Positions 27,695-54,386 are shown, counted from the first letter of the stretch. The stretch: 64,000 nt of DNA from Porphyromonadaceae bacterium (GCA_022840285.1 JALHIE010000027.1:13080-77079), one strand, 5' to 3'. The notes: generated from the sequence alone by a model not told the origin. A program made the numbers and translations.

Positions 27695-27769
27695 GAATTG
27701 TTAGCTCAGCTGGTTTAGAGCGCTGCCTTGACAGGGCAGAGGTCGTTGGTTCGAATCCAACACAGTTCA
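27695..27769 (+). tRNA. trnV: tRNA-Val(GAC)
   Basis: Acceptor stem GAATTGT/ACAGTTC, D arm TAGCTCAGCTGGTTTAGAGC, anticodon stem CTGCC/GGCAG with loop TTGACAG, T loop GGTTCGAATCC; TATTTTTG -7 box just upstream. Confidence 0.95.
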
Positions 27770-27779
27770 CTGCATAGCT

Positions 27780-37500: not shown

Positions 37501-38287
37501 TCGAAAAATAGAACGTGCATTAATTGAGAATAGTTTATTATGGCATAACGGCATAAACTATGACCACGAAAAAAGATACATCGGGTACGGTAGAGATTTT
37601 ATAAAAGTCAGTAAAGTACAAAACCATATAAGTTTTTCTAGATCCACGGTTTTGACCATTTTTAGTAAATTAAAAGAATCTCTCAACAGCATAAAATCGG
37701 TATTAGAAGATGGGAGAGAACTTTTTATTTTTAAATCGTATTGGGCAAGATTGGTATTAGAAATGCAACTATTTTTAAGGGTTAACTTACCTATTTTGAA
37801 ATTCGAAAAGGAATTCGAGAAGGTAAGTAAACTTGTAGAAGAAACCTATCATCAATTAAGCAAATCAGAATCTATTATGAGTTCGCTTATATCTAATGAC
37901 GACTACAAAGTAAGGGAAGGTATACAAAAACTCGTATTCGAGGTTGATAGCTTTGGAGTTCAGAAATTCATTTCAGAGTATCTTGTTGTGGTAAACAGAA
38001 TTGCCTCCAAAGCTAATCCAGGATTAAACAGTTGCATAAATAATTTTGCTTCGGTTATGCAATACCATTTTGAAGATATTGATAAAGAACTTTTCAAGCC
38101 TTTCGTGATCAATATATTAGTGCAATACGGAGAGTATTTTTCAAATCCTGAGGCCATGTGGGACATAAGCGCCAAAAAAGAAGATGTTGAAGATGCAATG
38201 CTCCAACTGAATAACGTAGCATGTGAGTGGAATGTAGGAAATAAATATTGGAGTGGTCACAAAAGAATATTCAAGGTTTCAGAATAA
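34562..38287 (+). CDS. Large SIR2-domain (DSR-like) putative anti-phage NADase, 1241 aa
   Basis: VVVGAGFS, TFNYD (N154), KLHG (H287), IGFSGDDPNF; long helical C-terminal region. Confidence 0.85.
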   Translation: MSINNEETIGKLIDLLDAEKLSVVVGAGFSKNASPKFLTWKELLKDMVIEMYGSMARELVEYVKVRGSNKEQRFWKDFVDQVINEKGYLTIASEYVKRHGYREVIDEYIEARTPLVIEDRDRFYTKLNGTKHEVDLNTHDQLLAVKWNNVYTFNYDNLLDVVGGAERHKVLEEEIIELEKNVSDIDLRLVVIEEELGRIEKVEDAKSQLKDTFNNKESPISSGIRTNELRVIDKKSLIVEQSDLKGKKNINKVAIESKKSEQDNLYYLVQNSFDLSLRKKQNIIKLHGTVRKAKCEKYGFDNDPRCHYIITADDYENYQEKHEAFVNLMRIALLQDSFCLIGFSGDDPNFTSWLCWVRDILDRRSVENKEEKVFFIDVSGHPLSESKKLFFKNHYIKHVPLFSDPQEATPSKIKEALNQLFQKLNRKGKAVKEVQQYTDFWQEYNFNPPKNDDSYLYGLKRKMISEVWNNREFNRLPRLELDYIGIKQRVISDLILRIKEGKVNEDIAKLFILAFKEFFIPLNTVIDNDMLAALPDLFKPYPDISEELELLYLRSLNLTGRNISELTRNRTSDAIVYESILNAAFHFDFTSMNQQLNRWNPGGLRWKSGKIALISYFNSKIDSSNSEYEKTSETNIQEYIYFLDTKLIATFGKEWTSKSDEFYIIHDKERNTIGQNLNRLDDNIKHLTKKLSEQKVDLSPRGNTSRTYYLGDNMSLKYSIQYLQVIIEVGLPLQEVGITHIKKEDWYRAFKNIYTRYPYPCLFYSLQYGGDENFLKRIAEDYVYSNELSAIHDEMLSYCLKAYQMPETPNNIKQGILSFTPLFFKKVSPSSWRKDFERIVNTFDLLNRNPNRNIGNPTYNFLYIGLQYTSSQIFKIKIANKILSLGNKIDHIDNHILIAARSNLNKKFKQRVKVTYIDQLIETLEQVSQYYVLFNLQDFLSPSQKEKLVAKLVQFNFKSCNEEGMLEASSRLSQLNLLLARKIERALIENSLLWHNGINYDHEKRYIGYGRDFIKVSKVQNHISFSRSTVLTIFSKLKESLNSIKSVLEDGRELFIFKSYWARLVLEMQLFLRVNLPILKFEKEFEKVSKLVEETYHQLSKSESIMSSLISNDDYKVREGIQKLVFEVDSFGVQKFISEYLVVVNRIASKANPGLNSCINNFASVMQYHFEDIDKELFKPFVINILVQYGEYFSNPEAMWDISAKKEDVEDAMLQLNNVACEWNVGNKYWSGHKRIFKVSE

Positions 38288-38507
38288 AAATTTGTTTATA
38301 GTTGGTACTATCCAAATTTTTGTGTAAACCCCATACTACAGGGTTCAAGTTCTATACTCGAATCCTGCTTTCAAATATTGTAAGAAATTGGTTAAAAATC
38401 AAGCCCCAATTCCAAATACGCTGATTCCAACTTTTCTCAATTTGGACAGTGTTAACCAATACGAACTTGCATGTTACTATTGGTATTTTTCTCTATAACT
38501 ACACGAA

Positions 38508-39074
38508 TCAAATAAATTCAAAATAGGGATGATCTGCATAATCGTGGCTACCTTCCTCAAGCATAGGATTATTCACAAAAAATGATTTGATATACAAATC
38601 CCGAGCGAAAGAAGTCACAATCGAATTATCTTCAATGTACATGGGCATGATGCAGTATAATCCATTTGACAGCGAGCGATTACTTGCATACATCGATGAC
38701 ATATGGCTCATGATAAGGCCGGTGAATACTTGCTCCTGCACATGGAAAAATTTTCCCAATATGACCATGGCATCATAGCCAAAGCCATAAGCTGCATTGA
38801 TCAGTGCAGCGTATATGATTGCTCTGTCTCCGGTGTATTTAAGACTTGTAAGGTATTCCTGCTTGTGCTCTTCAATGAAAGGATAAAGCGGGTTGCGTTG
38901 TGTCAATTTACCAATGATACTGCGAGCTTTATTGATTCGGTTTGCGCCCTGGTATTCACCGGCAGCCAAGTCTGCAGCATACTCAGGCGTGAAGCTGCCG
39001 TCGAGACAAGCTTTTATGGCCATCTCCATTACATGTATACTTATTCGTTGGTTGATACCTATAATTTTTTCCAT
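38508..39074 (-). CDS. brxA: BREX type 3 BrxA-like protein
   Basis: 188 aa, last gene of the operon, 1 bp after the pglZ stop; N-terminal IGINQRI. Assignment rests mainly on position. Confidence 0.6.
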   Translation of the reverse strand: MEKIIGINQRISIHVMEMAIKACLDGSFTPEYAADLAAGEYQGANRINKARSIIGKLTQRNPLYPFIEEHKQEYLTSLKYTGDRAIIYAALINAAYGFGYDAMVILGKFFHVQEQVFTGLIMSHMSSMYASNRSLSNGLYCIMPMYIEDNSIVTSFARDLYIKSFFVNNPMLEEGSHDYADHPYFEFI

Positions 39075-39075
39075 T

Positions 39076-40545
39076 TCAATCTTTTTCTATTGTGACAAAA
39101 GGGACGATTACCTCCAGGAAATGGGAACCTCCATGGGTTATTTCATCTTTTCCCTTAAAGCATCGACTGTTTTTCCAGACGGCCCAATTATCATGTACAA
39201 GCAACTCTTTATGAATCTCCGGATTATTTTGAATAAAATTGTCCAGGTAGGTTGCATTTGAATAAATAAGATGTCTACTCCCTTTGCTTTCTTTCTCGTA
39301 TAAAAATGTGCGTTCCTGTGAATTGAGCGATCGCCAGGAATGAGCCATGATATTGCCATGGTCGGCAGTAATATAAATTGTATATCCCTGCTCATGCAAC
39401 AATTTGATATTCTCTGCTGCTTCTTCTGCCCAGTTTTCCGTCAAATCGTATAAGTCTTTATTGCTGGAAGAGCTGTGCATTTTACGATCCAGACTGACAT
39501 CCACAAACGCTTGTTTATACAGAACGTTGTCATCTGTCAAGAGACTATCGTGTGTATAGGCAATTTCATAAGGTTGCATCTGTTTGGAACCCCTGTAACG
39601 ATTGGACCAAAACTCGCTCCAAAGTCTTCCCTCAGCGATGGGAGTCTGCCCGTAATCTTGTTGTGGAATATTTCCTCTAAAAATAGCTTGACGCGATAGT
39701 TTGGTAATAGAGGGAATCCAAGCCATGGTTGAATCCTTCTTCGTTTTAATCCCCAACCCTGTTAATTTTTGTTCCAATATCAGGTATTGCCAAAACGTCA
39801 TACCGTCTATCACAACCAACGCCACCTTTTCGGTACGATTGTGTTTGTAAGCCAAATGAGGCAATATTTTATTTACCGTTTTAGGCTTAACGATGTGTGA
39901 CGATGAAGACAAAGCAAAATATTTCTCGGCAATATATTGTTGGAAATCTTCATTAATAATTTCTACAGCTGACTCCATCTTATCATAAACTCCTTGGTTA
40001 ATCGCCTTGAGTAAGATGTGGCAAATGGAATCCATCGTTTCCACCTTCTCCCATTTTAATGGGATTGATTTTAGTTTTGTAGTCAGTTCATTTATGTCTT
40101 CTCCGTAGCGTTTTTTTGCCTCTTCAATCACTTCTTTGGTTTCAACAGCAGAAAGGTTATAAACGAATTTCTTGTTGTGGATGTAAGAAGCCATCCCAAA
40201 TGTCAGTCGAGCTTGACGGATTTCAGCCTCATTGCAAGCAGGCATAAGATCTGGAATTGAAAAGGTATGGGCGTTGTATAACAATCGCTTAATATCAGGT
40301 AAGACAGAGGATGGGTCATCCATGATGTAGCAAATTCGCTCTCGGGTGTTTTTGTCGTACAGTTCATACCTCACACGAAGTTCAAGTGAAGAAGAGATTG
40401 GTAGTAAAAGCAAGCCACAAGCGTTAAGTACAGCTTGTTGTGTGTCTGGCCGTTGTAAGAAACCATCCGGATTTCTCACAATACTGAGACGCTTACCTTC
40501 ACCGGTAAGCCTCTGTTCTAACCTATGAATAAATTCATCCATCAA
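39076..40545 (-). CDS. pglZ: BREX PglZ alkaline-phosphatase-superfamily protein
   Basis: LVVIDGM, IPSITKLSRQAIF, ITADHG, THGG. Confidence 0.92.
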   Translation of the reverse strand: MMDEFIHRLEQRLTGEGKRLSIVRNPDGFLQRPDTQQAVLNACGLLLLPISSSLELRVRYELYDKNTRERICYIMDDPSSVLPDIKRLLYNAHTFSIPDLMPACNEAEIRQARLTFGMASYIHNKKFVYNLSAVETKEVIEEAKKRYGEDINELTTKLKSIPLKWEKVETMDSICHILLKAINQGVYDKMESAVEIINEDFQQYIAEKYFALSSSSHIVKPKTVNKILPHLAYKHNRTEKVALVVIDGMTFWQYLILEQKLTGLGIKTKKDSTMAWIPSITKLSRQAIFRGNIPQQDYGQTPIAEGRLWSEFWSNRYRGSKQMQPYEIAYTHDSLLTDDNVLYKQAFVDVSLDRKMHSSSSNKDLYDLTENWAEEAAENIKLLHEQGYTIYITADHGNIMAHSWRSLNSQERTFLYEKESKGSRHLIYSNATYLDNFIQNNPEIHKELLVHDNWAVWKNSRCFKGKDEITHGGSHFLEVIVPFVTIEKD

Positions 40546-43303
40546 TTCTTACGGTTAAGATATGATTCACGTCGGGCACCACGCTAAGCCCTTTGGCAAA
40601 AGCACTTTTCCACTCTTCTTTTTCTGTAGTCAGCTTTCGTAACTTGGCATTTCTAATGTTTTCAATGCCAATGCGGTTGAGCCGATTCTCTGCATAACTC
40701 CAAGCCTTCAGTTTTTTCTCTGCTCTTGCTTGCAAAACGTTTTGAATTTCGGCTTCCATCCGATGGAACAAGGCATGAAGATTATTGTTTAAGGCTTGGT
40801 TTTCCTCTATAGCCAGATTGCATTCTGTTTCACCCACATATTGAAAACTGTTTTTCTCTTGCACCAATCTATTCCACACATCATTGCCGTAGGGAGCAAA
40901 TACCCTGCCCGCATCGGTAATAAACTGAGCAGAATAAGTTGTTTTGGTTTCGTAGTTGTTTTTGGCCAACACTTTCCATAAGGTCAGATAGCCACATGTC
41001 TCACCACCATTTTTAGACACAATTACAGGAACCATCGTTTGAATATTCCCATCCATCTCATCCAGAATTCGTTTCACGACGGGATGTTGCAAAGTAAGAT
41101 GTTCCGAACCAGGATTATCACCCAGCTTGTCTGCCTCAAATACAGCTTCCAGTCTATATCCGTTGATGGCGTATTCGGAAACACCGGACAATCGCTTCAC
41201 AATTTTACCCTTTTCATTCATCGTGTAAAGATCCATCAACTCTTCCAGCCATACAGGAAGCGGACTGTATTTTATTTCACCGGCACTTTCCTTTTTTATA
41301 TCGTCTCCTGTAAAAACAGGTAAAATACCTTCCGTAGATTTATAATCGTTGAGTTTGCTTTTTATCTCATACAGCCATTTGTCACTGGCAAAATCAAATC
41401 GATGGGGATCGAGCAATGATTGCAGATAAAGATGATTTACCTGCTTCATATCGATAGTAGAGTCCAGTACATCATTGGTTTTGTCAATTCCCAATTCTTG
41501 CAGTATGGCATCCAGTTTCTCCACGATAATCTCATATACTCTGGTGTCGACCGTGTTATTGGTCAACATATTGAAAGCAACTACCGGAAATTTCTGACCA
41601 ATACGATCTACACGTCCGATGCGTTGTTCTATGGCCATTGGATTCCAAGGCAAATCATAATTGAGAACGATGTGGCAAAACTGCATATTCAACGATTCAC
41701 CCGCCGCATCCGTTGCCACCATCACATTGGCTTCGTTCTTAAACTTCATAAGCGCCTGTTGTCGTTCCGCTAAATCCATGCTGCCATGTATTTCCACCGT
41801 AGTCAATCCTGCACCTTCAAGGATTTTTTTCAGATAGCCCTGTGTCTTGCGAAACTCGGTAAACACCAGTACTTTTAACTGAGAATTGTTGTACTTGTCT
41901 TGCAGTTTATAGATTTTCCGAACCAAAGCTGTCGCTTTGGCATCTTGTTCTGTTTCCAGGCAGGTGCGTGCCTCCACAATCAATTTTTGGAGTGCTGTTT
42001 CTTCATTGAAAAAGCCATTATCCTGCATTGCAACCGAAAAGTCGTTCGTATCTAAATCATCAAAGTCGACTACACCCTCTTCATCATAGTCGTCAATGTC
42101 ATCATCCGTTTCACCATGTTGCAACCTCCACAAACGAGTTTCCATGGCAGCCAAAATAGCGGCCGTACTGCTACTTGCCAACTTTTGCATCATCACCATC
42201 ACCAGTCCTGTAGCATTCCTATTACCTCGCTTGGCACGTCCAAAACAATACCTCACATAGTTGGTTACATGATTGTATAAATCTATCTGTAAGCGATGAT
42301 ATGTTTCGTCGAGTGGAACATCCAATCGTATGGTCATTCGCTGCTGAAAAAGTTTCTTCCCGTCATAATCCACCGCATATCGTTTTTCTGAACGCATCAC
42401 GTAAGGCTCAATCTCTTCAATACTCGGCATTCCGTCTCCCGGGAAAGCGTCGGCATCAATCAATTTGAGCACTCTGCGGAAATGATCGCTCTTGCCGCGA
42501 TGGGGAGTAGCGGTGAGAAGCAACACGTTCGGCACTGCATTGCATAGTGTTTCGGCCAATTGATAGCGAGATACCTGTGCCGTACTTCCACCCATGCGAT
42601 GGGCTTCATCAATAATAACCATGTCAAATTCAGCATTCACCACGGCTTCCAGGCGATACTTGTTGTATTCATCAATTTTCTCCTGGCTCCATCCTTGTCG
42701 AGCTGACAATGGCTTCAAAGCATCAGTAGAGACTATGATTTGATGATGCTGTTTCCAGAAATTCAACTCCTCTTCTGCTTCAAATCCGGCAAAAGTACGA
42801 GCCATCCCCGAAATAAAATCACTGTTGTAGATATGGAAGTTCTCGTTGAAGTGCTCCCTCAACTCCTGTTGCCACTGAAGCATAGCCGATTTAGGCACAA
42901 TCAACAAGATTCGCGTTATCTCGCCGCGCAATTTCTTCTCCTTTATCACAAGTCCAGCTTCAATGGTCTTTCCCATGCCCACTTCATCTGCCAACAAAAA
43001 ACGGGTTTGAATACCCTGCATTACTTTCTCCAATACCAGTATTTGGTGTGGCAAAGGAATAAGGCTACTTTCATAAGGGGCCAACAATCGCTTTTGAGCC
43101 ATTTCCTCTTTGATACGTGCCGCTATAGCCATATAACGAACGTATGCCAGACCCCTGTTGGAGTTCCTGTTCAGATCATCATCCAGATCAGAACTAAGCA
43201 CTTGGGCAAAACTGTTATCCTCCAGGATACGAATCCAGTGAGTTTCCTTGCCAAATAGCGTCTTACTACCTATTATCTCTATATTTTTGCCTTTATATTT
43301 CAT
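40535..43303 (-). CDS. brxHII: BREX type 3 SNF2-family helicase BrxHII
   Basis: LLADEVGMGKT, DEAH, LTATPH, TDAAGESLNMQ, QRIGRVDRIGQ. Confidence 0.88.
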   Translation of the reverse strand: MKYKGKNIEIIGSKTLFGKETHWIRILEDNSFAQVLSSDLDDDLNRNSNRGLAYVRYMAIAARIKEEMAQKRLLAPYESSLIPLPHQILVLEKVMQGIQTRFLLADEVGMGKTIEAGLVIKEKKLRGEITRILLIVPKSAMLQWQQELREHFNENFHIYNSDFISGMARTFAGFEAEEELNFWKQHHQIIVSTDALKPLSARQGWSQEKIDEYNKYRLEAVVNAEFDMVIIDEAHRMGGSTAQVSRYQLAETLCNAVPNVLLLTATPHRGKSDHFRRVLKLIDADAFPGDGMPSIEEIEPYVMRSEKRYAVDYDGKKLFQQRMTIRLDVPLDETYHRLQIDLYNHVTNYVRYCFGRAKRGNRNATGLVMVMMQKLASSSTAAILAAMETRLWRLQHGETDDDIDDYDEEGVVDFDDLDTNDFSVAMQDNGFFNEETALQKLIVEARTCLETEQDAKATALVRKIYKLQDKYNNSQLKVLVFTEFRKTQGYLKKILEGAGLTTVEIHGSMDLAERQQALMKFKNEANVMVATDAAGESLNMQFCHIVLNYDLPWNPMAIEQRIGRVDRIGQKFPVVAFNMLTNNTVDTRVYEIIVEKLDAILQELGIDKTNDVLDSTIDMKQVNHLYLQSLLDPHRFDFASDKWLYEIKSKLNDYKSTEGILPVFTGDDIKKESAGEIKYSPLPVWLEELMDLYTMNEKGKIVKRLSGVSEYAINGYRLEAVFEADKLGDNPGSEHLTLQHPVVKRILDEMDGNIQTMVPVIVSKNGGETCGYLTLWKVLAKNNYETKTTYSAQFITDAGRVFAPYGNDVWNRLVQEKNSFQYVGETECNLAIEENQALNNNLHALFHRMEAEIQNVLQARAEKKLKAWSYAENRLNRIGIENIRNAKLRKLTTEKEEWKSAFAKGLSVVPDVNHILTVRIDG

Positions 43304-44819
43304 GGTTCTCCTCTGAAAGAATAACTTTCATTGTAATGCCCAACTCCGTAAGTTTATATTTTTGTTTGGGGTGGTGGGGGGTGTCTGCATAGAGAGGGGC
43401 TATCCAACCAAGCTCGATAGCCGGTTTAAGAATATGCACCATAAAATAGCGTGCGGAGCTCGTGCGGAGTTCGAGCGGAGTTTGTGCGGAGTTCATACGA
43501 AGTTGCAATTCTCTCGCACTATAATAGTCACTATTGATGTTGCATATCAGTGATTTAACGCGAATTTTGAAGTTGTCGTCAAGTTGTGCCAACTTCGTGC
43601 GGAGTTCATCATGAGTTCGCTCTAAAGCCGTAACATTAGCATCCATAACCACCACTTCAAAGACGGTTAATTTATTTACATTAAAATGTGCCGGCTTAGA
43701 ACCATTGGTTTGAAGGTATTCCTGCACCCGGCTTATGCCTCGATTGAACATATTTACGTACTTCATTACCTTCATTGCTTCTGCCACGATAGGATTGCGG
43801 TAGGCATTCACATGGGGGAAGTTTTCCGGACGAGCTTCGCCATACAGTCCGCCAGCATTCATAATTTCAATGCGGTTGTCAAACTGATAGAGTCGAATGG
43901 GAGTGTTTGACTGATAATCTCTGTGCATGCAGGCATTCATCAAAAGTTCACGTAAAGCTCCTCCGGGGTAGTTTGTAACCGTTTTTTCGCGTAGCAGACT
44001 TATTTCTTCCGGTCGTTGCGTAACAATAGCATCGGCTACGAATGATTCTAATCGAGGTAACAAAGTTGTTAATCCTCCTTTAAATTCTTTTTCGTTGATG
44101 ATTTTGCCGGCCTTTGTTGTTCCCTCAAAGTGAACATATTGCACATAACAACCCGGCATAAAATATTTAGGCTGTTTACCAAAAAGTATGATTGCTGCCA
44201 TTGTGGGACAATCATATTGCTTGTTGTATAAGCGTAAAGAGGCCATCTGTTCCGTAAAACTACGAGTATCTGTTTCGAGTGTTTCGGTATCGATGGCTTG
44301 AGGAAAATATTGCTGTTTGATGATATCTGTATCAATATCATCCAATGTTGCTTCTCGGCAGGGCATTACATCGAAAGTGGCTAGATGTGCAGCATTTCGT
44401 TCGGTGAGGATCCGTTCTTCTTCAGCCGAAGCGATATCCTTACGTGGGCCGATGCGTACGAAAACGCGACCTCGGTAGCGGACAGGAGTGAAGAGAGAAG
44501 GAGTAACTGCGACGGCAAGCACATCGCCTTTTTCGGTTTCTACCTTTTCTGTACTCATTACAGGTAAAGGGAGGATGTTGCCGTCTGAACGAATTCCGGA
44601 AATCTTTTTTACCAGGGCATCATCCACTTTAAGTCCGCTCACCGAACCATCATCATTGACACCTATAAGTAGGTAGCCTTTCTTCCCGGAACCGGGAAGA
44701 TCATTGGAAAAAGCACAGATTGCCTCCTGAAACTTATCCATGTTGGAAGTGGAAGCAGTACGTTCTATGCGAAAATTTTCATCCGTTTGCAACAACTCGT
44801 TCAACTCTTCCTTGGTCAT
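43293..44819 (-). CDS. Schlafen/AlbA_2 + HATPase_c_4 + winged-HTH protein inserted in BREX
   Basis: ENFRIERT...ICAFSND...YLLIGVNDDG (AlbA_2); ALRELLMNACMHRDY (HATPase_c_4); LKPAIELGWI...PKQKYKLT (wHTH). Confidence 0.85.
   Translation of the reverse strand: MTKEELNELLQTDENFRIERTASTSNMDKFQEAICAFSNDLPGSGKKGYLLIGVNDDGSVSGLKVDDALVKKISGIRSDGNILPLPVMSTEKVETEKGDVLAVAVTPSLFTPVRYRGRVFVRIGPRKDIASAEEERILTERNAAHLATFDVMPCREATLDDIDTDIIKQQYFPQAIDTETLETDTRSFTEQMASLRLYNKQYDCPTMAAIILFGKQPKYFMPGCYVQYVHFEGTTKAGKIINEKEFKGGLTTLLPRLESFVADAIVTQRPEEISLLREKTVTNYPGGALRELLMNACMHRDYQSNTPIRLYQFDNRIEIMNAGGLYGEARPENFPHVNAYRNPIVAEAMKVMKYVNMFNRGISRVQEYLQTNGSKPAHFNVNKLTVFEVVVMDANVTALERTHDELRTKLAQLDDNFKIRVKSLICNINSDYYSARELQLRMNSAQTPLELRTSSARYFMVHILKPAIELGWIAPLYADTPHHPKQKYKLTELGITMKVILSEENHEI
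43450..43493. repeat. Four tandem 11-bp units inside the AlbA gene
   Basis: CGTGCGGAGCT CGTGCGGAGTT CGAGCGGAGTT TGTGCGGAGTT; a fifth copy lies at 43596-43606. Confidence 0.85.
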
Positions 44820-44854
44820 ACACTTTCGTTTTTACAACCCAACATTCTAAGAGA

Positions 44855-47548
44855 TTACACTCTTGAAACAGCAATATCGTAATACTGGAGCAGAATCTCA
44901 TCTTCTTGAAGCAGAGACTCCTGTATATGGTCGCCCACTGTGATAATTGCCTGGTAGTCCTTTTGCTTGTAACACTCCTTGAAACCATAGCGTAGTACTT
45001 CGAGACGGGTATCTCTCATCCGCCTAGCCTTTGGCTTTTGGGCCTGTTCCAGATACATATTATATTCTTTCATCATCTTTCTTCCCCGCATAATCTCCAT
45101 ATCGGCAGCCTTTTCGGCATCTGGCTTGCGCCATTTGCCATCAGCGTCTCTGATGAAATTATCTTCCAGAATTTCGGATAGCTCAGGAAGAATATCACCT
45201 TTCTTAGTGGGAGTCATATTCTTCATCCATTCAGGTTGCAATTCTGAATAGGTCTGGGGTGTTTCCAATTCACGCTTCAACCATTCAATGCCTTCTGCTT
45301 CACTGCCTATAAACAATGCCATTGGCACAATACCTGTTGTTTTACTCTTCTTGTCTTCATATTCCAATGCTTGAGAAGCCGTAAAGAACATCCCATCGCG
45401 CTCAATAAATCGTTCTCGAAGACCCTTCTGAAATTCTTGGGCATTTAGAGGTACTTCAATGCCATGCATAACAAAGTATGAAACGACTTTGTCATATAGA
45501 ATACGCTGATCACGTTCTACAACGCATTCAATATTATTATCTTTAATTAGAACTGGGGATAAATGTTCTAAATGTTCTTCAATAAAATTCCATATATTTT
45601 TTTCTATAGAATCTTTGTTTTCAAACTGCAAAACTATAGAAGGTTTATAGCATGAAATTACGAGATCTTGTTTTACAGCAGTTGTCGTTGTTATTGAACG
45701 CATACCACCTTGTCCTTTATTCAATGCAGCTACATTTGCTAGAACAAATCCTGCTTTAGTTATTGCCTGCCGAATAGAATTCCATATACCAGCATTGGTG
45801 TTACTAAATTCTACAGTCATCCATTTGCCTGGTTTAAGAACACGATAGTATTCAGCAAAACTTTTCGACATCTTATTTAAATAAAATGAGAAATTTTTAT
45901 CCTGACAAGAATTTATGATAGCTTCTGTCTGACTATTTGTTAGAACTTTCAACCATGCTTCTGGTAATATATTGAGTTCAGAATACATAATGTTTGAACC
46001 AAATGGAGGATCTGTAAATATGTAATCTACAGAAGCATCATTAATAGGAAATTTTTCTGCTGATCCTATATACAATGCATTATCGAATTCTCGTGGAAAG
46101 TATGGAATAGCTCTTAGATATCCACTCAATTTGTCTTCAATTTGTTCAAGTATTGATGTCTCTATGGGCAAGTTCGGTATGTATAAGGTGCCTTTTAAAT
46201 GACCTGCATTCCATCCGCCACCTCCATAAAAATAGTTACTGACATGGATTCGATTCATCTTAGTAGAACGATTCACCATTCCTGTAAAAATAAACTTTAG
46301 TTTGTTTGACAGTGCTGATTTCTGTATCTTATCAAAGAAAGTAGATAGCGCGATTAGGTTCCTCAAAGTATAAAATTGATGAACATAACATATGTTTTGA
46401 GCATTTTTGGGTTGTTGTGTATTATAACCATTAGGCAATTCATACGTAGGGACAAAGTAGTTGTTCTTATAATTCATTATTCTTTCGAGTAAAGCTTTGT
46501 CATATTCATCCGCTTTTTTTTCAAATCTTTTATTACCAACAGAATATACTAGAATTGCCGGAGTAGTTTTGTTAATTGACACCGTTTTACCTAAATAATT
46601 ATCATAGATAGTATTAAAGGCTCTTTTTGTTGAATATTTAGTATGTATAATATTGCAATGAGGGCAATAAAATTCATCCTTAATGCACTTATTATCCCTA
46701 TCTATTGCTGCATCCCAATAAACGAATTCCTTGCCACAGTTGGTACATATTAAAATATCACTCCATACCATGTAGTTAATTAACCCAATTTCTTTTCTTT
46801 CATGCATTGTAGTGTACAACCATTTACACTCTTCCTTTGTTTCACTGAATATTCTTTCAACTTCTTTCTTTAGTTCTAACGAATTGACTGGTGTATTATA
46901 ATTGTATGAAACCAAAGAAGCATATGGAGACAAATCTCCACAAATTGCATGACGTTTCCCCCAATTTGGATGTTTTCCTGATTGTTCACCCCATTCTCTT
47001 TCAATTGACTCTATGTCTTCTTTTGAAGGATTACCACAAGCTTGTGCGGCAATTCCAGTCATCCCTGTTCCTGCAAACCCATCGAATACAATGTCGCCCG
47101 GTTGGGTATAATGCAAAATATATCGCATGATAGCGGGATGAGGTACTTTTGTATGGTAGGTATGTGCAGTATACACTGGGTTATTTTTACCTACCTTTAC
47201 ATCATTTGCATATGGCTCTTTCACTTCAAAACGGGCCTGTCGTTTCCCTTCTGCCTGAAGTTGTTCTTTTTCTTTTTCCCATTCCCCAATAAAATCATTT
47301 AACCAGGGGTTGGGACAAGCTGTATAGTATGGGGGATCAGAGAGATTGACAATATCGTCATCTTCTCCAATAGGAAAGCCTTCTATCTTTTTTAGTTCCG
47401 GCAGTTTCTTGCGAAGCTCTTCCCGAAAATAATCCCGACGAGCCTCTTCACATGGAAATTCCATTCCAAAGCAAACTACGGGTTCGGGGTTTAAACTGGT
47501 CTCCTCAAATTCATCATCAAGAAACAGCCTGGGGTCTTTATTGCTCAT
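44855..47548 (-). CDS. pglXI: BREX type 3 DNA methyltransferase PglXI
   Basis: HTYHTKVPH, motif I FDGFAGTG, CxxC...CxxC, motif IV TDPPF. Confidence 0.88.
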   Translation of the reverse strand: MSNKDPRLFLDDEFEETSLNPEPVVCFGMEFPCEEARRDYFREELRKKLPELKKIEGFPIGEDDDIVNLSDPPYYTACPNPWLNDFIGEWEKEKEQLQAEGKRQARFEVKEPYANDVKVGKNNPVYTAHTYHTKVPHPAIMRYILHYTQPGDIVFDGFAGTGMTGIAAQACGNPSKEDIESIEREWGEQSGKHPNWGKRHAICGDLSPYASLVSYNYNTPVNSLELKKEVERIFSETKEECKWLYTTMHERKEIGLINYMVWSDILICTNCGKEFVYWDAAIDRDNKCIKDEFYCPHCNIIHTKYSTKRAFNTIYDNYLGKTVSINKTTPAILVYSVGNKRFEKKADEYDKALLERIMNYKNNYFVPTYELPNGYNTQQPKNAQNICYVHQFYTLRNLIALSTFFDKIQKSALSNKLKFIFTGMVNRSTKMNRIHVSNYFYGGGGWNAGHLKGTLYIPNLPIETSILEQIEDKLSGYLRAIPYFPREFDNALYIGSAEKFPINDASVDYIFTDPPFGSNIMYSELNILPEAWLKVLTNSQTEAIINSCQDKNFSFYLNKMSKSFAEYYRVLKPGKWMTVEFSNTNAGIWNSIRQAITKAGFVLANVAALNKGQGGMRSITTTTAVKQDLVISCYKPSIVLQFENKDSIEKNIWNFIEEHLEHLSPVLIKDNNIECVVERDQRILYDKVVSYFVMHGIEVPLNAQEFQKGLRERFIERDGMFFTASQALEYEDKKSKTTGIVPMALFIGSEAEGIEWLKRELETPQTYSELQPEWMKNMTPTKKGDILPELSEILEDNFIRDADGKWRKPDAEKAADMEIMRGRKMMKEYNMYLEQAQKPKARRMRDTRLEVLRYGFKECYKQKDYQAIITVGDHIQESLLQEDEILLQYYDIAVSRV

Positions 47549-47565
47549 ATTTGGTTTTATTCTCT

Positions 47566-50500
47566 TTATTTGATTATGATACGTACATCTTCCGGACGGT
47601 GTCCACGGCTTTGGGCCTCTATGTATTCAGCCAAAGCCTCAATAGCTTGTTGCTTAGTCATAGGCTTAGAAAAGATTCGAAGCATATCCCCATGATTGAT
47701 CTCGATTTTCGTGAAACTACGCTGTAATTTAGTAATAATTTCTATCAACGGATGTGCATACTGCCGATTGAGTTTGATCACTCCATCGGCAAACTGCTGA
47801 ATCATGGTCTTTTCCTGATGGCTCAGCATCTCCTGATTGCGCTTAGTTGTAGGATCATCCAGAGCATCACGGAATTGCTGCTCATATTCAGCGAAAATTT
47901 CGCTCAACTCGTCCTGTAATTCTCCAATTTGTGGTAGCTGCTCTCGCTGAAGTGTGGGATTGAAGCCATCGGGAGCTGTGGGCATGGATAGGATTGTCTG
48001 CTTACTGACAGTTGGATTCACAACTTGCAGCAGTGCTAATTTTCTTAACCATGCATCATACCGGGAAGGGTTAATGAAAGGTGCATCGCGAATAGTATCG
48101 CACACCTGTTTATAGTCATTGGCCCTAAGTTTCTGTGCCTTGCTATAGTCAATCTCACTGATATGTGCTTTTACATATTCGCTCATATACCAATCGGCAT
48201 ATCGCTCTTTTAGGGTCTTAAGTTCTGATTTATAGTTATCAACCACAGTTTTGTCCTGGCCTATTACCTCTTTAATATTGCTAATACCTGCGATAATATC
48301 CTCTTTGAGATTGGGCTCATTGATGTTGGACAGCGCAGTGCGTAGATAGCCAATCATATCCTTGAAGACATTCAACTCTTCCAGCATACGTTCTGTGTCA
48401 TCCAGCTTCCGCAAAGTTTCGTTCATCGCTTTTTTAACCACATCGATAGACCAATCAATATTGCGCATCTTGGCTTTGGTGTTGTATCGCTGAAGTTGGT
48501 TGCAAATGCCTTTTAAACGAACAAGTTCCTTGTCAAATTCCGAAGCTTCTTCGCTTGAGATCACTTCAATGTCACCGGCAAAACGATAGTCTCCTTGAAT
48601 CTTATGCTGTAAAGTGACCACGCGGTTCTCGATGCTTTGTGCCTTGCTCGACAAATCGGCAAACACACTGCTGTTTGGACTATCCAATTCATTCACACGG
48701 TCTATACCCAGCAGGCCCAACATCAACTCACGAACCAAGGCAACATTCAATCCTTTGGGGGGACATATATTCGAGAATGTGTAATTATCTTGCGGATTCA
48801 GTTTGTTGATATCGGCAATGTTGCTCGCATTGATACGTGTACCTCCTTGTAGCACAATCTCTATTTCACCCAAGGCTGCCATGGTTGCCATCACCAACAT
48901 TTGCAAATCGGCCTCAATATGAAAATCGGAGGAGATGTACTCGTGTGTTTCATCGAAGAACAAATCCAATATCTCATCCCGATTCACTACTTGACCATCT
49001 TTTGCCTCCAGTTTCTGCTTCAGACTACGGGCATATTGCGAGTGATCGGTGCTAAGGCGACCGTCATTCCACAAACCAAGTCCCATCAGGATGGCTTCTC
49101 CATTTCGGTTTATGATGGTAGGGTTGGCTATTTTAGCACGAGCTGAACGCAAAAGATTATCACGATTTTCCCGTGTCAAAGGTTGACCCAATTGTGAGAA
49201 CTTCGGGTAATGAGGGTTCTCTGCCTCAAACTGCAGCTCCATAATATAAGAAGTGACCGCACTGATGGCATCAATTTTTGATTCTGCTTGTGCTCCCTGC
49301 ATTGTTTCCATAGCAAGCTTTTCACCCAAATACTCCACCATGGTTTTGGCAAGAAACTGTTGGTTGAAAAGTTCACGTGCTTCCTTAAAGAATTTTTCGC
49401 GGAGTTGTTTGTAGCGAGGCTTTTCATCGCTACTTGCACTGCCTTCTTGAGAGAGAGCAGAACCATAGAGCGTAACTTTCTTTTTGAACTCATCGCTCAA
49501 ATCGTCCATCAGGAAGAAAACGCTATCTTTCTCTGTAGGATAAGATTTCCCAGCTGAATCAAAGATAGGCATAAAGTAGATGTAGAAATGCTGCTGTGGC
49601 TGAGTGGTTGAACGATCATTCGGATTACCCATAAAGATATATCCGGCACGATGGCATTTGTGGGATAACCATTCTATATTGTGTGCCCAGATCCGGAAAT
49701 TGCGACGGTATGTCTCGCCTTCCACCGGCAGTACTTCGGCCAGAAACATATAGAAGTATTCATCTTTCTGAGCGTCTCCCATCTGTGCGGCATAATCCTT
49801 CACCTTCTGTTCGTAATTGACGCCTCCTTCTATTCTGAGGTGGTATTCATTGTTTTCTCCTTTTTCAAAATATTGTCCGATGGTGGCCGAAACAATTGCA
49901 TCCAAAGTACGGTTAAATGCCAAATCTACCAACTCATCGTAGTTTTCACACGTATGATCGATATGGCAAAGGTCGTTGGCCAACGATTCGGCAGTAACTC
50001 CATTGTGCTGACTAAGGTCTGCTTGAAGCATCTTGATGGCTGCAGCAGATACAATACGGTGAGCCAACGTTCTTTTAGGAGCAAGGCCCTTCGTAAAGTT
50101 ATCTCTTATCTTTTGATCAATCAGTTCAGTAATATCGCTCACCTTACTTACATCGGGGTCGGCCTTCAGATCTACATTGTGCTGTATATCTTTCCAATAG
50201 GAGTCATAAGAGATTAGACCAGGCTCGTTTGTAGGCACCTCATCGTTCATGATACCTTCAAACTTATGGGATAGTGTCTTTAACACTTCACGTTGACTTT
50301 TGCCGATGCGTATCAAGGAAAAATTATCAAAGTAGCTTGGATGCACGGGATATAAGTTCACATAAGTATCCAGGTTGTTATTCATATTTGGAAACATAAC
50401 CAGAAATTGAGACAGATGTTGGCGAATCTGTGCTTTCTGATGTTCATCCTTTCGTAACAACCGTTGTTGTACGATGTATTGTACATCTTCTTTCTTTATA

Positions 50501-51234
50501 GTGAGGTCAACATATCGTTCGTTCACTCTTCCCAGCATATCTTTGGCAAATTGAAATTCGGGAGAGCGGTAAATAAGTTCCTGTACACCAAATACCATAC
50601 GAAAATGGGTACGATCGCTCATTTGACCCAACGCCTGCAAAACAGCCAGATCACGATTCAGTTTAGCGGGTTCACTGCGACCTTTTAAATAGGATAACAT
50701 TTCATCGATGACAAGCATAAAGCCTTTTTCAGGGTATTTTTCTTCAAAGGCTGCCATCATGCACTCTATCTTTTCAGAGTAAGATTTAGGAGAATCATCA
50801 CCCGAAATGGAATATTCAACACCCCATTGCGCCAAAGCCGAATCAATCTTATAAGTGATAATATCCCACAATTCCTGATTGTGCCCCAATTCAAAACGAT
50901 AAACCATGTATTTTCCAGCAATCGTTTTGAGCCAGTCTTTTGCTTTCTCACTCTGTACCATGGGTAGGTAATCCGCATTCTCAGCAATGATGGAGAATAG
51001 TGACATCAAGTGAGATTTACCGGTACCATAATTACCCACAATCTGGATACCTTTTGTTTCTGTTGTGGCATTCAAATCGAGTGTTGCACAGATTTTCGGA
51101 ATAATGTAGTTTTCGAAGGTATTGGAAAACACAAAGTTTTTTACCACTTTTGCACGATAATCATCATCATCGAGTTTCCCAAACTTGATGATTTCATCAA
51201 TCGGGTCAAATTGAATCAAATCTCTGTATCTCAT
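47566..51234 (-). CDS. brxC: BREX BrxC/PglY-type ATPase (DUF6079 family)
   Basis: Walker A GNYGTGKS, Walker B LVIDE, YPVHP; long coiled-coil C-terminus. Confidence 0.88.
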   Translation of the reverse strand: MRYRDLIQFDPIDEIIKFGKLDDDDYRAKVVKNFVFSNTFENYIIPKICATLDLNATTETKGIQIVGNYGTGKSHLMSLFSIIAENADYLPMVQSEKAKDWLKTIAGKYMVYRFELGHNQELWDIITYKIDSALAQWGVEYSISGDDSPKSYSEKIECMMAAFEEKYPEKGFMLVIDEMLSYLKGRSEPAKLNRDLAVLQALGQMSDRTHFRMVFGVQELIYRSPEFQFAKDMLGRVNERYVDLTIKKEDVQYIVQQRLLRKDEHQKAQIRQHLSQFLVMFPNMNNNLDTYVNLYPVHPSYFDNFSLIRIGKSQREVLKTLSHKFEGIMNDEVPTNEPGLISYDSYWKDIQHNVDLKADPDVSKVSDITELIDQKIRDNFTKGLAPKRTLAHRIVSAAAIKMLQADLSQHNGVTAESLANDLCHIDHTCENYDELVDLAFNRTLDAIVSATIGQYFEKGENNEYHLRIEGGVNYEQKVKDYAAQMGDAQKDEYFYMFLAEVLPVEGETYRRNFRIWAHNIEWLSHKCHRAGYIFMGNPNDRSTTQPQQHFYIYFMPIFDSAGKSYPTEKDSVFFLMDDLSDEFKKKVTLYGSALSQEGSASSDEKPRYKQLREKFFKEARELFNQQFLAKTMVEYLGEKLAMETMQGAQAESKIDAISAVTSYIMELQFEAENPHYPKFSQLGQPLTRENRDNLLRSARAKIANPTIINRNGEAILMGLGLWNDGRLSTDHSQYARSLKQKLEAKDGQVVNRDEILDLFFDETHEYISSDFHIEADLQMLVMATMAALGEIEIVLQGGTRINASNIADINKLNPQDNYTFSNICPPKGLNVALVRELMLGLLGIDRVNELDSPNSSVFADLSSKAQSIENRVVTLQHKIQGDYRFAGDIEVISSEEASEFDKELVRLKGICNQLQRYNTKAKMRNIDWSIDVVKKAMNETLRKLDDTERMLEELNVFKDMIGYLRTALSNINEPNLKEDIIAGISNIKEVIGQDKTVVDNYKSELKTLKERYADWYMSEYVKAHISEIDYSKAQKLRANDYKQVCDTIRDAPFINPSRYDAWLRKLALLQVVNPTVSKQTILSMPTAPDGFNPTLQREQLPQIGELQDELSEIFAEYEQQFRDALDDPTTKRNQEMLSHQEKTMIQQFADGVIKLNRQYAHPLIEIITKLQRSFTKIEINHGDMLRIFSKPMTKQQAIEALAEYIEAQSRGHRPEDVRIIIK

Positions 51235-51235
51235 T

Positions 51236-51655
51236 CTATAAGGTCTTATATGTTATATCTTTCAAGTTTAATGAATACTTGGTTTCGTTGTTTGTGGTAA
51301 GAAAGAAGACATGGTTATGAATAGTACCTTCGTGATGAATGATTAACACTCTGGTCCTCGACCACGAATCGACTTTCGCATGAAGATTGATATGCAATGC
51401 AGGTTCAAAGAGGATACCAATATTTCGGATAGCAACATAATCGCCAACATCAGGATCTTGTATTGTATATTGATCAATAATCTTGTCAAGAGCTTCTTCG
51501 GCCACCATTGAGAGCCGTTTTTCATGAAGTATATGCTCTATTGCTGCAGATAATTCAGTTCCCACATCCACAAACGATATATCTTCTATCTCACGCTTGA
51601 TAAAAAGCAGTTTGTGCCGGGAATTTGCAGCTATATGTTGTTTCCATGTTTCCAT
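51236..51655 (-). CDS. brxF: BREX type 3 BrxF-like protein with no recognisable Walker A
   Basis: First gene of the operon; NIGILFEPAL resembles the BrxF NxExLF motif; TATCTTTG promoter on the minus strand at 51731-51738. Confidence 0.7.
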   Translation of the reverse strand: METWKQHIAANSRHKLLFIKREIEDISFVDVGTELSAAIEHILHEKRLSMVAEEALDKIIDQYTIQDPDVGDYVAIRNIGILFEPALHINLHAKVDSWSRTRVLIIHHEGTIHNHVFFLTTNNETKYSLNLKDITYKTL

Positions 51656-51894
51656 TTATTGGATTTCTTCTTTGAAAGGATAATGTAATTTTTCCTTATT
51701 TTCTAAAGTAGTGTACGAAATATAACATAGCAAAGATAACGAAGATATTTCAAACCTCTTAAAAGATTTTTTGAAATCGTAATATCGTTACATGAACTGA
51801 ACTGAAAAATAAATCGTTAAGCACGTAATAACCGGAAACGCTGGGTATAATTCAACACCGACTCATCGCTGGGTCGTGCCGACCGCTCAGAGTC

Positions 51895-53160
51895 CTATTT
51901 ATTAGGTGTAGATTTTTTTTCATCATCACCGTTTGTTTTAGTCTTTTTCATAGATTTCTTAGGACTGTCAGTTTTATTCAAAGAAGAATCAAAAAAGTCA
52001 GATATATTTTTTGATGCTAACTTTTGAGCACTTAGCATGTCTGAAATACTTTTTGAAGTCATTGCCTGAGAACTCAATATATCAGAAATACTAATCGGTT
52101 TATATGATTGGGCACTAAGCATATCTGAAATACTCTTTGAAGTAATTGCTTGAGAACTTAACGTGTCAGAAATATTAATTGGTTTACAGGTCTGAGCACT
52201 TAGCATGTCTAAAATACTCTTTGAAGCAAGTGAGTGTGTGTTCAAAATATCACTTAAATTAGTATAATATTTTTCATCTGAAACACGAATATCTTTTACT
52301 TCTTCAATCGTCTCATCTTTAATTTCTGGTAGCAAACCTCTTTCCTTTGCATAAGTTAAAAACTGGTCAGCATTATAAATTAGAATTCTTATTCCTGTAA
52401 AATCAAAAAATTCCTTTATTAATTCTTCTCTTGGTCTTAAAGTTTTCCCTTTTTCAATTGTCCACCAATCTTCCTTTCTATCATCAGTTATAAAAATGAG
52501 AGGATTTTTTTTGTTTTTCGTATAATTAATTAATTCTTTCCAGACAATCAAATCACCATAAATGTTTCTGAGCCCTTTTTTTTGCTTTGTGTTTTCATCT
52601 TTATATCCAGGAGGGATTTCATTAGCATACCTTTCTTTTCCCTCTGAATAAATCTTAGTTAATTCATCTTTTGAGAATTCTTCACCCACACTATCATCAA
52701 AAAGTTCAGTAATTTCATTTAATACAGTATCTTCAGTTTTGAAATCTGGATGATTCGCTTTTTGTTTTTCAAGCTCATTGGATACATTCTCCAAGAAATT
52801 ATCATGTGTTTTTATTATTTCATCTATTAGGATTGACGGATGCTTTTTATAGTGATTTAATTGCTTTTGTAAGTTTTTATCAAAATTTTCTATAAGAAGA
52901 GAATTAATATCATCATATGATTTTTCGATTCCTTCAATTACCCCAAGTCTGTTTTCATGATATTCAAATGCGGCTTGATATGGAAGAAATAGCTTATCTT
53001 TTATCGTTTTCAATGCTCGAATAAAATCATTTCTTGTATTTACCGTATATCGATATAAGTTTAAAAGTGTATTTGCATCAAAAGCAAATACTCCTTTGCT
53101 CCAAGCTTCGTCAGTTTCTTTTTTATCTGGCGAATAATATCCAATAAATTTCTTTTTCAT
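51895..53160 (-). CDS. PIN-like domain protein (PIN_8/DUF4935-type) with a C-terminal 14-aa repeat tail
   Basis: FAFDANTLLNLY, AAFEY, YGDLIVW, FITDDRKEDWW acidic PIN motifs. Confidence 0.82.
   Translation of the reverse strand: MKKKFIGYYSPDKKETDEAWSKGVFAFDANTLLNLYRYTVNTRNDFIRALKTIKDKLFLPYQAAFEYHENRLGVIEGIEKSYDDINSLLIENFDKNLQKQLNHYKKHPSILIDEIIKTHDNFLENVSNELEKQKANHPDFKTEDTVLNEITELFDDSVGEEFSKDELTKIYSEGKERYANEIPPGYKDENTKQKKGLRNIYGDLIVWKELINYTKNKKNPLIFITDDRKEDWWTIEKGKTLRPREELIKEFFDFTGIRILIYNADQFLTYAKERGLLPEIKDETIEEVKDIRVSDEKYYTNLSDILNTHSLASKSILDMLSAQTCKPINISDTLSSQAITSKSISDMLSAQSYKPISISDILSSQAMTSKSISDMLSAQKLASKNISDFFDSSLNKTDSPKKSMKKTKTNGDDEKKSTPNK
51990..52262 (-). repeat. In-frame 84-bp (2 x 42-bp) tandem repeat in the PIN gene
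   Basis: TG(A/G)GCACT(T/A)AGCAT(G/A)TCT starts at 52025, 52109 and 52193; protein SKSISDMLSAQ / PISISDILSSQ alternate. Confidence 0.92.
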
Positions 53161-54192: not shown

Positions 54193-54386
54193 TCTTTTGG
54201 CGAAATACTGTCGCAAAGCTTACCACTAACATGTTTTTCACCCAATCAATCTCCTCCTTGCCTAAATGTTAAATTTAAAACATTCGTATATCTACACGCA
54301 ACAGGGGTGTTTACGAAAGTTTGTTGAATCCGGATAAATAATTGATGGAAACTTGTGTGTTGCATAAGTATCAGTATTTTGAATCG

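Follow-up and report, generated by a model that had tools for sequence, protein, structure and literature searches.

The DNA analyzed here, a stretch of 64,000 nucleotides from a Porphyromonadaceae bacterium (GCA_022840285.1 JALHIE010000027.1:13080-77079; hereafter the window, in whose coordinates positions are given), carries from 51655 to 38508 seven contiguous open reading frames (ORFs) on the minus strand, encoding proteins of 139, 1222, 897, 508, 922, 489, and 188 aa. They form a type 3 bacteriophage exclusion (BREX) operon into which one further gene, the main subject of this work, has been inserted:

51236-51655, minus strand: brxF, 139 aa, the first gene of the operon; PADLOC BrxF at 1.3e-8, position conserved in other loci by tblastn
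47566-51234, minus strand: brxC/pglY, 1222 aa; full-length Pfam match to the DUF6079 ATPase (6e-236, 786 bits), PADLOC BrxC at 8e-247
44855-47548, minus strand: pglXI, 897 aa, an N6_N4 DNA methyltransferase; PADLOC PglXI with 1063 bits, Pfam N6_N4_Mtase PF01555 at 1.1e-17
43293-44819, minus strand: the extra gene, 508 aa, assigned below to the Schlatpase-HTH class through Pfam, an AlphaFold2 model, and Foldseek
40535-43303, minus strand: brxHII, 922 aa, an SNF2-family helicase; PADLOC BrxHI/BrxHII at 1.4e-249 over residues 4-921
39076-40545, minus strand: pglZ, 489 aa, phosphatase-like, with a TTG start; Pfam PglZ at 5.5e-15 (56 bits, cut-off 25), PADLOC PglZ at 1e-39
38508-39074, minus strand: last gene, 188 aa, called brxA-like solely from its position

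BrxC with its DUF6079 domain, PglXI, BrxHII, PglZ, BrxF, and the gene order identify the operon as type 3. The order read on the minus strand, brxF-brxC-pglXI-[SLFN_AlbA_2 + GHKL ATPase + winged helix-turn-helix (wHTH)]-brxHII-pglZ-'brxA', keeps the type 3 succession brxF-brxC-pglXI-brxHII-pglZ-brxA and adds one gene to it. A preliminary description of this DNA had taken that succession to be canonical, and indeed many of the loci surveyed below show it contiguous and free of inserts (e.g., L009, L031, L038, L049, and L060), with distances of 3-28 bp between pglXI and brxHII. In the window, the ATG of the extra gene (44819) follows the pglXI stop codon (44855-44857) after a gap of 35 bp, while its own stop codon (43293-43295) lies beyond the brxHII ATG (43303), giving an overlap of 11 bp (ATGAAATATAA); order and junctions are exactly as previously described. 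The start of pglZ likewise overlaps the end of brxHII by 11 bp.

The system had also been called complete. Five core identities and the gene order fit this description, and 'brxA' is recognized by its position: the 188-aa product gave zero profile matches in Pfam, PADLOC, and NCBIfam, even at E<=10, and it is conserved at the same position in about 40 type 3 BREX loci (tblastn). The best NCBIfam match of BrxF, BREX_3_BrxF, reached 6.6e-7 and 29 bits, below the curated cut-off of 50, so that this assignment has weak but consistent support from a gene in the expected position. For PglZ the best match was BREX_PglZ_3 (1.8e-44, 152 against a curated cut-off of 250, again below); its short N-terminus is typical of this Bacteroidales clade, the length being equal in L007 and L016-L018 (tblastn). 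BrxHII matched SNF2-rel_dom, Helicase_C, and ResIII in Pfam. Because 'brxA' is without a profile match and the NCBIfam scores of BrxF and PglZ stay below their cut-offs, we consider the operon a divergent Bacteroidales form. The 13-kb block as a whole is best explained as a complete type 3 BREX system from an uncultured member of the Bacteroidales. To our knowledge, there is no mechanistic study of type 3 BREX.

Three Pfam domains were recognized in the product of the extra gene, all scoring above their cut-offs, which are the Pfam gathering scores:

44433-44771, minus strand (aa 17-129): Schlafen/AlbA_2 domain (SLFN_AlbA_2), 56.2 bits, cut-off 25.3
43650-43904, minus strand (aa 306-390): GHKL ATPase (HATPase_c_4), 49.5, cut-off 26
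43347-43559, minus strand (aa 421-491): Fic-like_C wHTH, 33.3, cut-off 27

An AlphaFold2 model of the 508-aa protein (predicted local distance difference test score, pLDDT, 77.7) was in keeping with these assignments. Over its full length, Foldseek retrieved 3LMM (8e-18), the Corynebacterium diphtheriae protein DIP2311, a structural-genomics entry with unassigned function. The N-terminal domain alone retrieved SLFN12, SLFN11, SLFN13, SLFN5, and the SAMD9 tRNase, the middle domain histidine-kinase CA domains and PDK4, and the C-terminal domain the wHTH of a Fic protein (4RGL). Searches of the PDB with the single sequence or a profile of the protein returned no mammalian Schlafen; the fold search alone reached them. 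Another structural-genomics entry, the 'RecG-related' N-terminal domain 2KYY, matches the Schlafen-like domain and has, unlike the window protein, a canonical E-x4-E-x-K (DESARIEAK). NCBIfam holds no model for the extra gene, and the PADLOC prokaryotic Argonaute (pAgo) model PDLC02394 matches residues 8-385. The family is large, with 3,768 homologs at E<=1e-10 among 8,000 candidates scored and 9,350 representatives at 50% identity at E<=1e-3.

PF04326 followed by PF13749 and a C-terminal HTH is the architecture of Schlatpase-HTH proteins, and we are highly confident that the extra gene is an accessory module of this published kind. Kuzmenko et al. (bioRxiv 10.64898/2026.05.29.728809) count the Schlatpase supradomain (SLFN + GHKL) in 58.6% of 103,533 prokaryotic Schlafens; they also report that a tRNA-cleaving Schlafen nuclease is assembled by ATP-driven tetramerization and that the module is exchanged with type I restriction-modification (R-M) systems. 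According to Taboada et al., Schlafen-ATPase-HTH proteins make up about a fifth of prokaryotic Schlafens (pSlfns), the HisKinase-HTH class accounting for 19.2% of 5,930. The association with BREX has likewise been noticed: in at least 1017 taxa a Schlafen-HisK-wHTH gene is linked to BREX or BREX-related core loci, such genes being read as backup suicidal effectors (PMC12839542, NAR 2026), and Schlafen-ATPase-DNA-binding clusters are tied tightly to BREX and R-M (PMC13462974, Nat Commun July 2026). Both the link and the backup-effector idea are computational. The class is thus already known from computation, and the window locus is a further instance, with the same domain architecture and the same placement within or adjacent to BREX as in PMC12839542 and cluster 2 of PMC13462974. 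It differs from them in three respects: they treat the Schlafen domain as an active RNase, whereas the clade in the window has an Ex4ExT motif; this clade moves among type III and type I R-M, BREX-1, and BREX-3; and its genes contain an 11-bp repeat. As a BREX-embedded Schlatpase-HTH the locus is compact and, to all appearances, both intact and transcribed, and we know of no Schlatpase-HTH embedded in BREX or R-M that has been functionally assayed. It lends itself to asking whether a guarded abortive effector is built into methylation-based systems, by what signal it would be set off, and whether a Schlafen pocket lacking the catalytic Lys can cleave RNA.

A scan with a PglXI profile, limited to one genome per species, gave 80 loci from Bacteroidota, Proteobacteria, Firmicutes, Spirochaetes, and a Methanosarcina. 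The BREX proteins of the window were mapped onto them, and the ORFs lying in the brxC-pglXI and pglXI-brxHII slots were collected. A hidden Markov model search of all ORFs in the 80 loci showed Schlatpases (SLFN_AlbA_2 + HATPase_c_4, with or without Fic-like_C) to be the largest cargo cluster, present in 15 loci: in the pglXI-brxHII slot in 7 of 65 evaluable cases, in the brxC-pglXI slot in 7 of 70, and in L085, where the slot was not determined. By the same search, none of the 15 lay outside the operon; hence the association, which the preliminary description had left to a survey of the slot, is recurrent rather than sporadic. The internal slots also contained HipA kinases, Fic proteins, GmrSD, OLD-type AAA_21/AAA_15 ATPases, YhcG/DUF1016 nucleases, large DEAD helicases (1460-1525 aa), and second copies of PglXI, and both act as cargo sites in type 3 BREX. 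BrxHII was missing from 18 of 60 loci, in agreement with a published figure of 77% of type 3 systems possessing it.

The nearest BREX-3 relatives of the window, judged by BrxC identity, were L001 (89%), L018 (76%), and L007 (74%), and in all four loci, the window included, a Schlatpase occupies the pglXI-brxHII slot. In L007 and L018 it comes from a different clade, with a canonical ExK motif and about 23% identity to the window protein. That the same slot is filled by a Schlatpase of another clade argues for a functional link over chance insertion. As a separate observation, a Schlatpase also lies in the brxC-pglXI slot of a BREX-3-like locus on the Methanosarcina contig (L057).

The genomic context was compared for nine homologs, the window's own included. 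P0002 (89% identity) occupies the same BREX-3 operon in L001. Three others, P0006 in L002 (75%), P0015 in L004 (75%), and P0020 in L005 (74%), are encoded between Mod and Res in type III R-M systems, with an overlap of 1-4 bp into the res start; P0030 in L006 (66%) lies in a type I R-M system between hsdS and hsdR; and P0038 in L089 (58%) lies in a type 1 BREX between pglX and pglZ, overlapping the pglX end. The remaining two, P0047 in L087 and P0064 in L090 (61% each), stand alone in defense islands. One Schlatpase clade therefore inhabits four types of host system (type III R-M, type I R-M, type 1 BREX, and type 3 BREX), and in 7 of the 9 contexts it follows the methylase or specificity gene and precedes the motor gene, suggesting a common interface or signal. 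The distinctive 'BREX variant' of the preliminary description did not survive this comparison: the gene is a portable accessory module of a common mobile defense type, not a peculiarity of BREX-3.

Some of these loci hold further genes. In L089 (7001-9403), the ExT-clade Schlatpase, of 548 aa, shares the pglX-pglZ interval with an unannotated gene of 247 aa. An SNF2 helicase and a DUF4391 gene precede the type III R-M genes in L002 (470-5325, where a DUF4238 gene is also found) and L005 (1934-5934); in L004 (5145-6100) there is only a short DUF4391 fragment, and the upstream SNF2 gene is absent. Where present, SNF2/DUF4391 and the type III R-M genes may form a larger composite system.

The part of the extra gene that encodes the wHTH contains a short tandem repeat, accompanied upstream by a solitary copy:

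43450-43494, minus strand: 11-bp tandem repeat, 4.1 copies by Tandem Repeats Finder, within the wHTH-coding part of the extra gene
43597-43607, minus strand: solitary exact unit GAACTCCGCAC, preceding the array by 113 bp on the gene strand

On the gene strand the units of the array read GAACTCCGCAC / AAACTCCGCTC / GAACTCCGCAC / GAGCTCCGCAC. A search for the unit in the window gave five matches against 0.67 expected, four of them inside the extra gene; elsewhere in the window, promoters included, the motif was found only as a match with one mismatch (869-879, minus strand), which we treated as chance. The solitary copy has the same offset in L001, L002, and L004, and in L005 it lies 24 bp earlier. 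The translationally coupled motor gene, brxHII here and res in type III R-M, follows array and solitary copy at a distance of 150-190 bp.

The unit length of 11 is not divisible by 3, and natural alleles of differing copy number switch the reading frame:

3 copies (perfect), in L001: truncated product of 460 aa, stop 122 nt before the brxHII ATG
4 copies, in the window and 17 other samples: full-length product of 508 aa, 11-bp overlap with brxHII
5 copies (exact duplication of one unit), in X33 and X34, two samples of one study: truncated product of 476 aa, stop 96 nt before the brxHII ATG

The truncated products are predicted, that of 476 aa from a simulated frameshift. Both the 3- and the 5-copy alleles are predicted to lose the conserved wHTH wing and to undo the translational overlap with brxHII. 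The duplication in the 5-copy allele is recent, because X8 shares its single-nucleotide polymorphism haplotype yet has four copies. In a census of assembled contigs the variant allele was rare (2 of 19 samples), and phase variation at high frequency is not demonstrated by these contigs.

Arrays of this kind extend well beyond the window. The 75%-identical type III R-M genes have the same repeat at the same place, in 3.9-5.0 near-perfect copies, and in more distant relatives the units at that place are different ones, of 11 or 12 bp; period-11/12 arrays were also found at the same relative place in L057, L072, L087, and L090. Schlatpase genes constitute 2.7% of the 1.54 Mb of loci that were fetched, yet they hold 13 of the 33 period-11 and 6 of the 48 period-12 arrays. 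At the protein level, 84 of 115 homologs repeat a peptide word of 4 aa or more within the 125 aa at their C-terminus, compared with 19/115 for N-terminal windows and 15/115 for shuffles. Many lineages repeat, after 'ELQL', the peptide that stands before the 'VKSLI' helix; its sequence differs between lineages and matches within a gene. Period-11/12 arrays are therefore a property of the whole family. The 11-bp arrays of the ExT clade share the core nAaCTnnnCAC and have a period of about one helical turn, and the upstream and downstream copies co-vary between lineages.

The repeat may be an inconsequential, slippage-prone linker, a contingency switch, or a set of iteron-like sites for the gene's own wHTH. 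As a switch, the gain or loss of one unit may truncate the wHTH and uncouple translation of the downstream helicase (brxHII or res), as predicted from the alleles; as iterons, the gene's own DNA may dock or regulate an oligomeric ATPase whose Schlafen pocket has changed function. That the repeat of the ExT clade is either a contingency switch toggling effector and motor together or an iteron array bound by its own co-evolving wHTH strikes us as distinctly unlikely. The frame-shifting 11-bp repeat appears to be undescribed: in the literature consulted, we found nothing relevant on repeats or phase variation in AlbA_2/Schlafen genes. It provides an easy test case for whether natural populations turn such accessory genes on and off.

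The explanation that we favor as a whole, which in our estimate is evenly balanced between right and wrong, is that of a BREX-embedded Schlatpase-HTH providing a second-layer response. The gene would be an accessory defense gene inserted between pglXI and brxHII and seemingly co-transcribed with both, and its mechanism would parallel those of RzAgo and CbCash. A signal tied to the neighboring methylase-motor machinery would turn on the response, probably cleavage of RNA (tRNA) and growth arrest; candidates for the signal are foreign DNA sensed via the wHTH and a BREX complex that has stalled or been inhibited. Nuclease activity, trigger, and abortive outcome would carry over to the window protein by the same analogy; the direct support is for the domains and fold, the intact ATP-binding motifs, two invariant Glu residues, the embedding in the operon, and the recurrent placement after a methylase. 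For the specific claim that the protein is an active tRNA-cutting backup effector, our expectation is tentative and falls somewhat short of even. The preliminary description had proposed such a built-in backup effector. The proposal stands insofar as the gene is embedded, coupled to brxHII, recurrent, and in line with the published hypothesis (PMC12839542); it suffers from a lack of BREX specificity and from a non-canonical motif.

The two models for this mechanism resemble the window protein to different degrees. The SLFN-pAgo protein RzAgo has SLFN (PF04326) and GHKL (PF13749) in common with it, E291 and N295 of the window protein being equivalent to E314 and N318. The catalytic motif of RzAgo is the canonical E(x)4(D/E)xK, whereas the window protein has Thr in place of the Lys, and tetramerization and tRNA cleavage, both seen in RzAgo, would extend to the window protein by analogy. 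Since it has no Argonaute core, its sensor must differ from that of RzAgo, the wHTH and/or the BREX complex being the candidates. CbCash (PMC13462974) is a prokaryotic Schlafen that serves a different immune system as its attached abortive tRNase effector, much as proposed here; it is switched on by cA4 (cyclic tetra-adenylate) via Csx15 and has a complete E17-D22-K24 triad, in which Thr takes the place of Lys in the window protein.

Effectors nested in other defense operons offer looser parallels. PrrC, in the EcoprrI type I R-M locus, is a latent RNA-cutting backup effector inside an R-M operon; it consists of an ABC-type NTPase with its own nuclease domain, and its regulation by the R-M complex has been demonstrated. 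The logic is the same as that proposed here, but there is no relation of sequence or fold, and searches of Pfam, NCBIfam, and PADLOC yielded no PrrC homology, so that the comparison with PrrC drawn in the preliminary description holds as an analogy of logic only. BrxU (GmrSD) and the PARIS/OLD-type modules in BREX, as cited in PMC12839542, follow the same principle of nested extra effectors, albeit with different families and different targets (modified DNA; Ocr sensing). GmrSD and OLD-type ATPases are also among the cargo of the type 3 slots that we surveyed.

The ATPase half of the protein fits the favored explanation well. The GHKL N-box reads R-E291-LLM-N295-ACMHRD (E291-x3-N295). Of 120 close homologs, 119 have E291 and all 120 have N295, and the two residues were also invariant in 11 distant Schlatpases carried as BREX-3 cargo. 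Since the NxGG box, too, is kept in close and distant relatives, ATP binding is likely, as judged from these motifs.

The Schlafen half is more ambiguous. It displays E14-x4-E19-x-T21, C35AFSN39, and G53V-N-D56-D57-G, thereby keeping D56/D57 after G53-V54 as well as the Schlafen box C35-A-F-S-N39; D56/D57 are candidates for the equivalent of SLFN11 D252. E14, R17, and E19 are each unchanged in 119 of the 120 close homologs; that these three residues and T21 are so strongly conserved speaks for a pocket with some role. The motif E14-NFRI-E19-R-T21 nonetheless departs from the catalytic Ex4(E/D)xK, with Lys replaced by Thr. Among the 150 best representatives at 50% identity (P0241-P0390), 95 were readable, the closest 46 having ExT and 33 more distant ones ExK; distant Schlatpases in other BREX-3 slots had the canonical ExxxxEFK in 10 of 11 cases. 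The ExT clade (Ex4ExT for Ex4(E/D)xK) appears to be undescribed.

Several points weigh against the favored explanation. Thr occupies the Lys position in 119 of the 120 close homologs (P0001-P0120), and the putative third acidic position (56) is D in 85/120 and N in 35/120 of them, with N-N in 27/120. The K24A substitution in the E17-D22-K24 triad of CbCash abolishes tRNA cleavage (PMC13462974); because Thr replaces this catalytic Lys, an RNase activity of the extra protein is specifically doubtful. The acidic residues had been named in the preliminary description as the thing to check, and in the window protein two Glu and an Asp are in place, the missing element being the Lys. The acidic residues, the third of them putative, are thus kept, yet the pocket is of a non-canonical type conserved throughout the large clade to which the protein belongs, and its motifs caution against assuming RNase competence. 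Moreover, in Taboada et al. only 2 of 7 pSlfn genes tested gave protection, and the architecture of these two was neither HisKinase nor HisKinase-HTH. The clade members of L087 and L090 stand alone, so that the protein does not require a partner system. Finally, the evidence for co-transcription comes from assembled RNA contigs, possibly with carried-over DNA. The metatranscriptome contig X34 (38300-44603) contains brxA, pglZ, brxHII, and most of the Schlatpase gene in one piece, and X33 (42948-45175) and X41 (44671-45067) run across both junctions of the extra gene; these contigs weakly suggest a polycistronic transcript.

A serious rival, although we judge it rather unlikely, is that the Schlafen domain is non-catalytic; the protein would then not be a nuclease but would bind DNA and, depending on ATP, act as sensor or regulator for the methylase-motor module. 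A regulator had been the other possibility named in the preliminary description. Regulation could be transcriptional through the wHTH, perhaps on the gene's own 11-bp repeats upstream of brxHII, or allosteric on the complex. The change from Lys to Thr, invariant as it is in a large clade (119/120 close homologs; 46 of 95 readable representatives), and the frequent Asn at the third acidic position would both be natural in such a protein, as would the conserved C-terminal wHTH. The 11-bp period, shared core, and co-varying copies of the repeat resemble iteron or operator sites co-evolving with a DNA-binding domain; the repeat motif is, however, missing from the promoter regions of the operon and the rest of the window, and the gene lies in mid-operon, unlike the head-placed BrxR or C-protein regulators. 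Mammalian Schlafens without catalytic residues do exist (PMC13462974), but the invariant E14, R17, and E19 suggest a working metal or substrate pocket, and canonical ExK Schlatpases occupy the same slot in sister loci, both of which count against this rival.

We regard as improbable the idea that the gene is an autonomous hitch-hiker, i.e., a self-sufficient defense or selfish gene that settles in permissive R-M-like slots and borrows their transcription while being uncoupled from BREX. The stand-alone members of the clade in defense islands (L087, L090) are compatible with such a life, as are the many unrelated cargo genes hosted by the same slots, and the SLFN-pAgo study (bioRxiv 10.64898/2026.05.29.728809) reports no conserved Schlatpase partner. 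A hitch-hiker would not be expected, however, to show so consistent a placement, with the methylase or S gene directly ahead of it and the motor gene behind (7/9 contexts, four system types), nor a translational overlap with the downstream motor gene as common as that observed. Fusions of Schlatpases to the type I S subunit, reported in the literature, also point to a coupling, and the closest BREX-3 loci keep the slot filled, in part by a Schlatpase of a different clade. That the gene is a decaying insertion or pseudogene without present function is very improbable: frameshifted alleles exist (L001, 460 aa, which also lacks brxHII, and the 5-copy X33/X34), but the window allele is full-length, the in-frame 4-copy state is found in 17 of 19 samples, and the clade is strongly conserved, with 59% mean column identity and many invariant residues.

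The BREX operon lies within a defense island of lower GC content, with the following neighbors:

32098-33267, plus strand: AAA_14/DUF4143 gene (PDC-S01), flanking the operon
34562-38287, plus strand: SIR2_2 protein of 1241 aa, convergent on brxA; PADLOC Dsr2 at 3e-32, ThsA-like
51895-53160, minus strand: PIN_8 protein of 421 aa, 239 bp upstream of brxF
53446-54216, minus strand: ORF of 256 aa without assigned family, operon flank
54530-55210, minus strand: RhuM (PDC-S05), operon flank
55270-55836, minus strand: KilA-N (PDC-S22), operon flank

The 1241-aa SIR2_2 gene looks like a separate, Dsr2-like defense gene. A tRNA-Val at 27695-27770 was considered as an island border with an integrase and was dropped, the adjacent ORF being BNR/sialidase-like and no integrase.

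The operon sequence was present in metagenomes from anaerobic digesters, sludge, landfill, and bioreactors; a megablast search of the whole operon against complete Escherichia coli genomes gave zero matches. Contigs from other samples part from the window at about 38386-38443 and about 51837-51912, and in L001 (GCA_009771425.1, contig WPCJ01129024.1) the same operon has different neighbors, MnmE and a beta-lactamase; the BREX block thus travels as one piece, and the Schlatpase with it. The PIN_8 gene lies outside this mobile block, because the contigs of other strains diverge at about 51837-51912.

Two further features distinguish strains within the operon. The center of pglXI (46038-47034) has zero nucleotide similarity to L001, the operon being otherwise 79-84% identical, and contigs of other samples drop out across about 45200-47900, in the pglXI region, entering unlike sequence at 45175. 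Taken together, these observations suggest an exchange of the target-recognition region, and the hypervariable center probably reflects swapping of target-recognition domains between strains. In L001, moreover, brxHII is cleanly deleted, the missing sequence corresponding to 43274-40547 of the window, from 28 nt inside brxHII to the pglZ start; this deletion accompanies the frameshifted 460-aa Schlatpase in the same operon.

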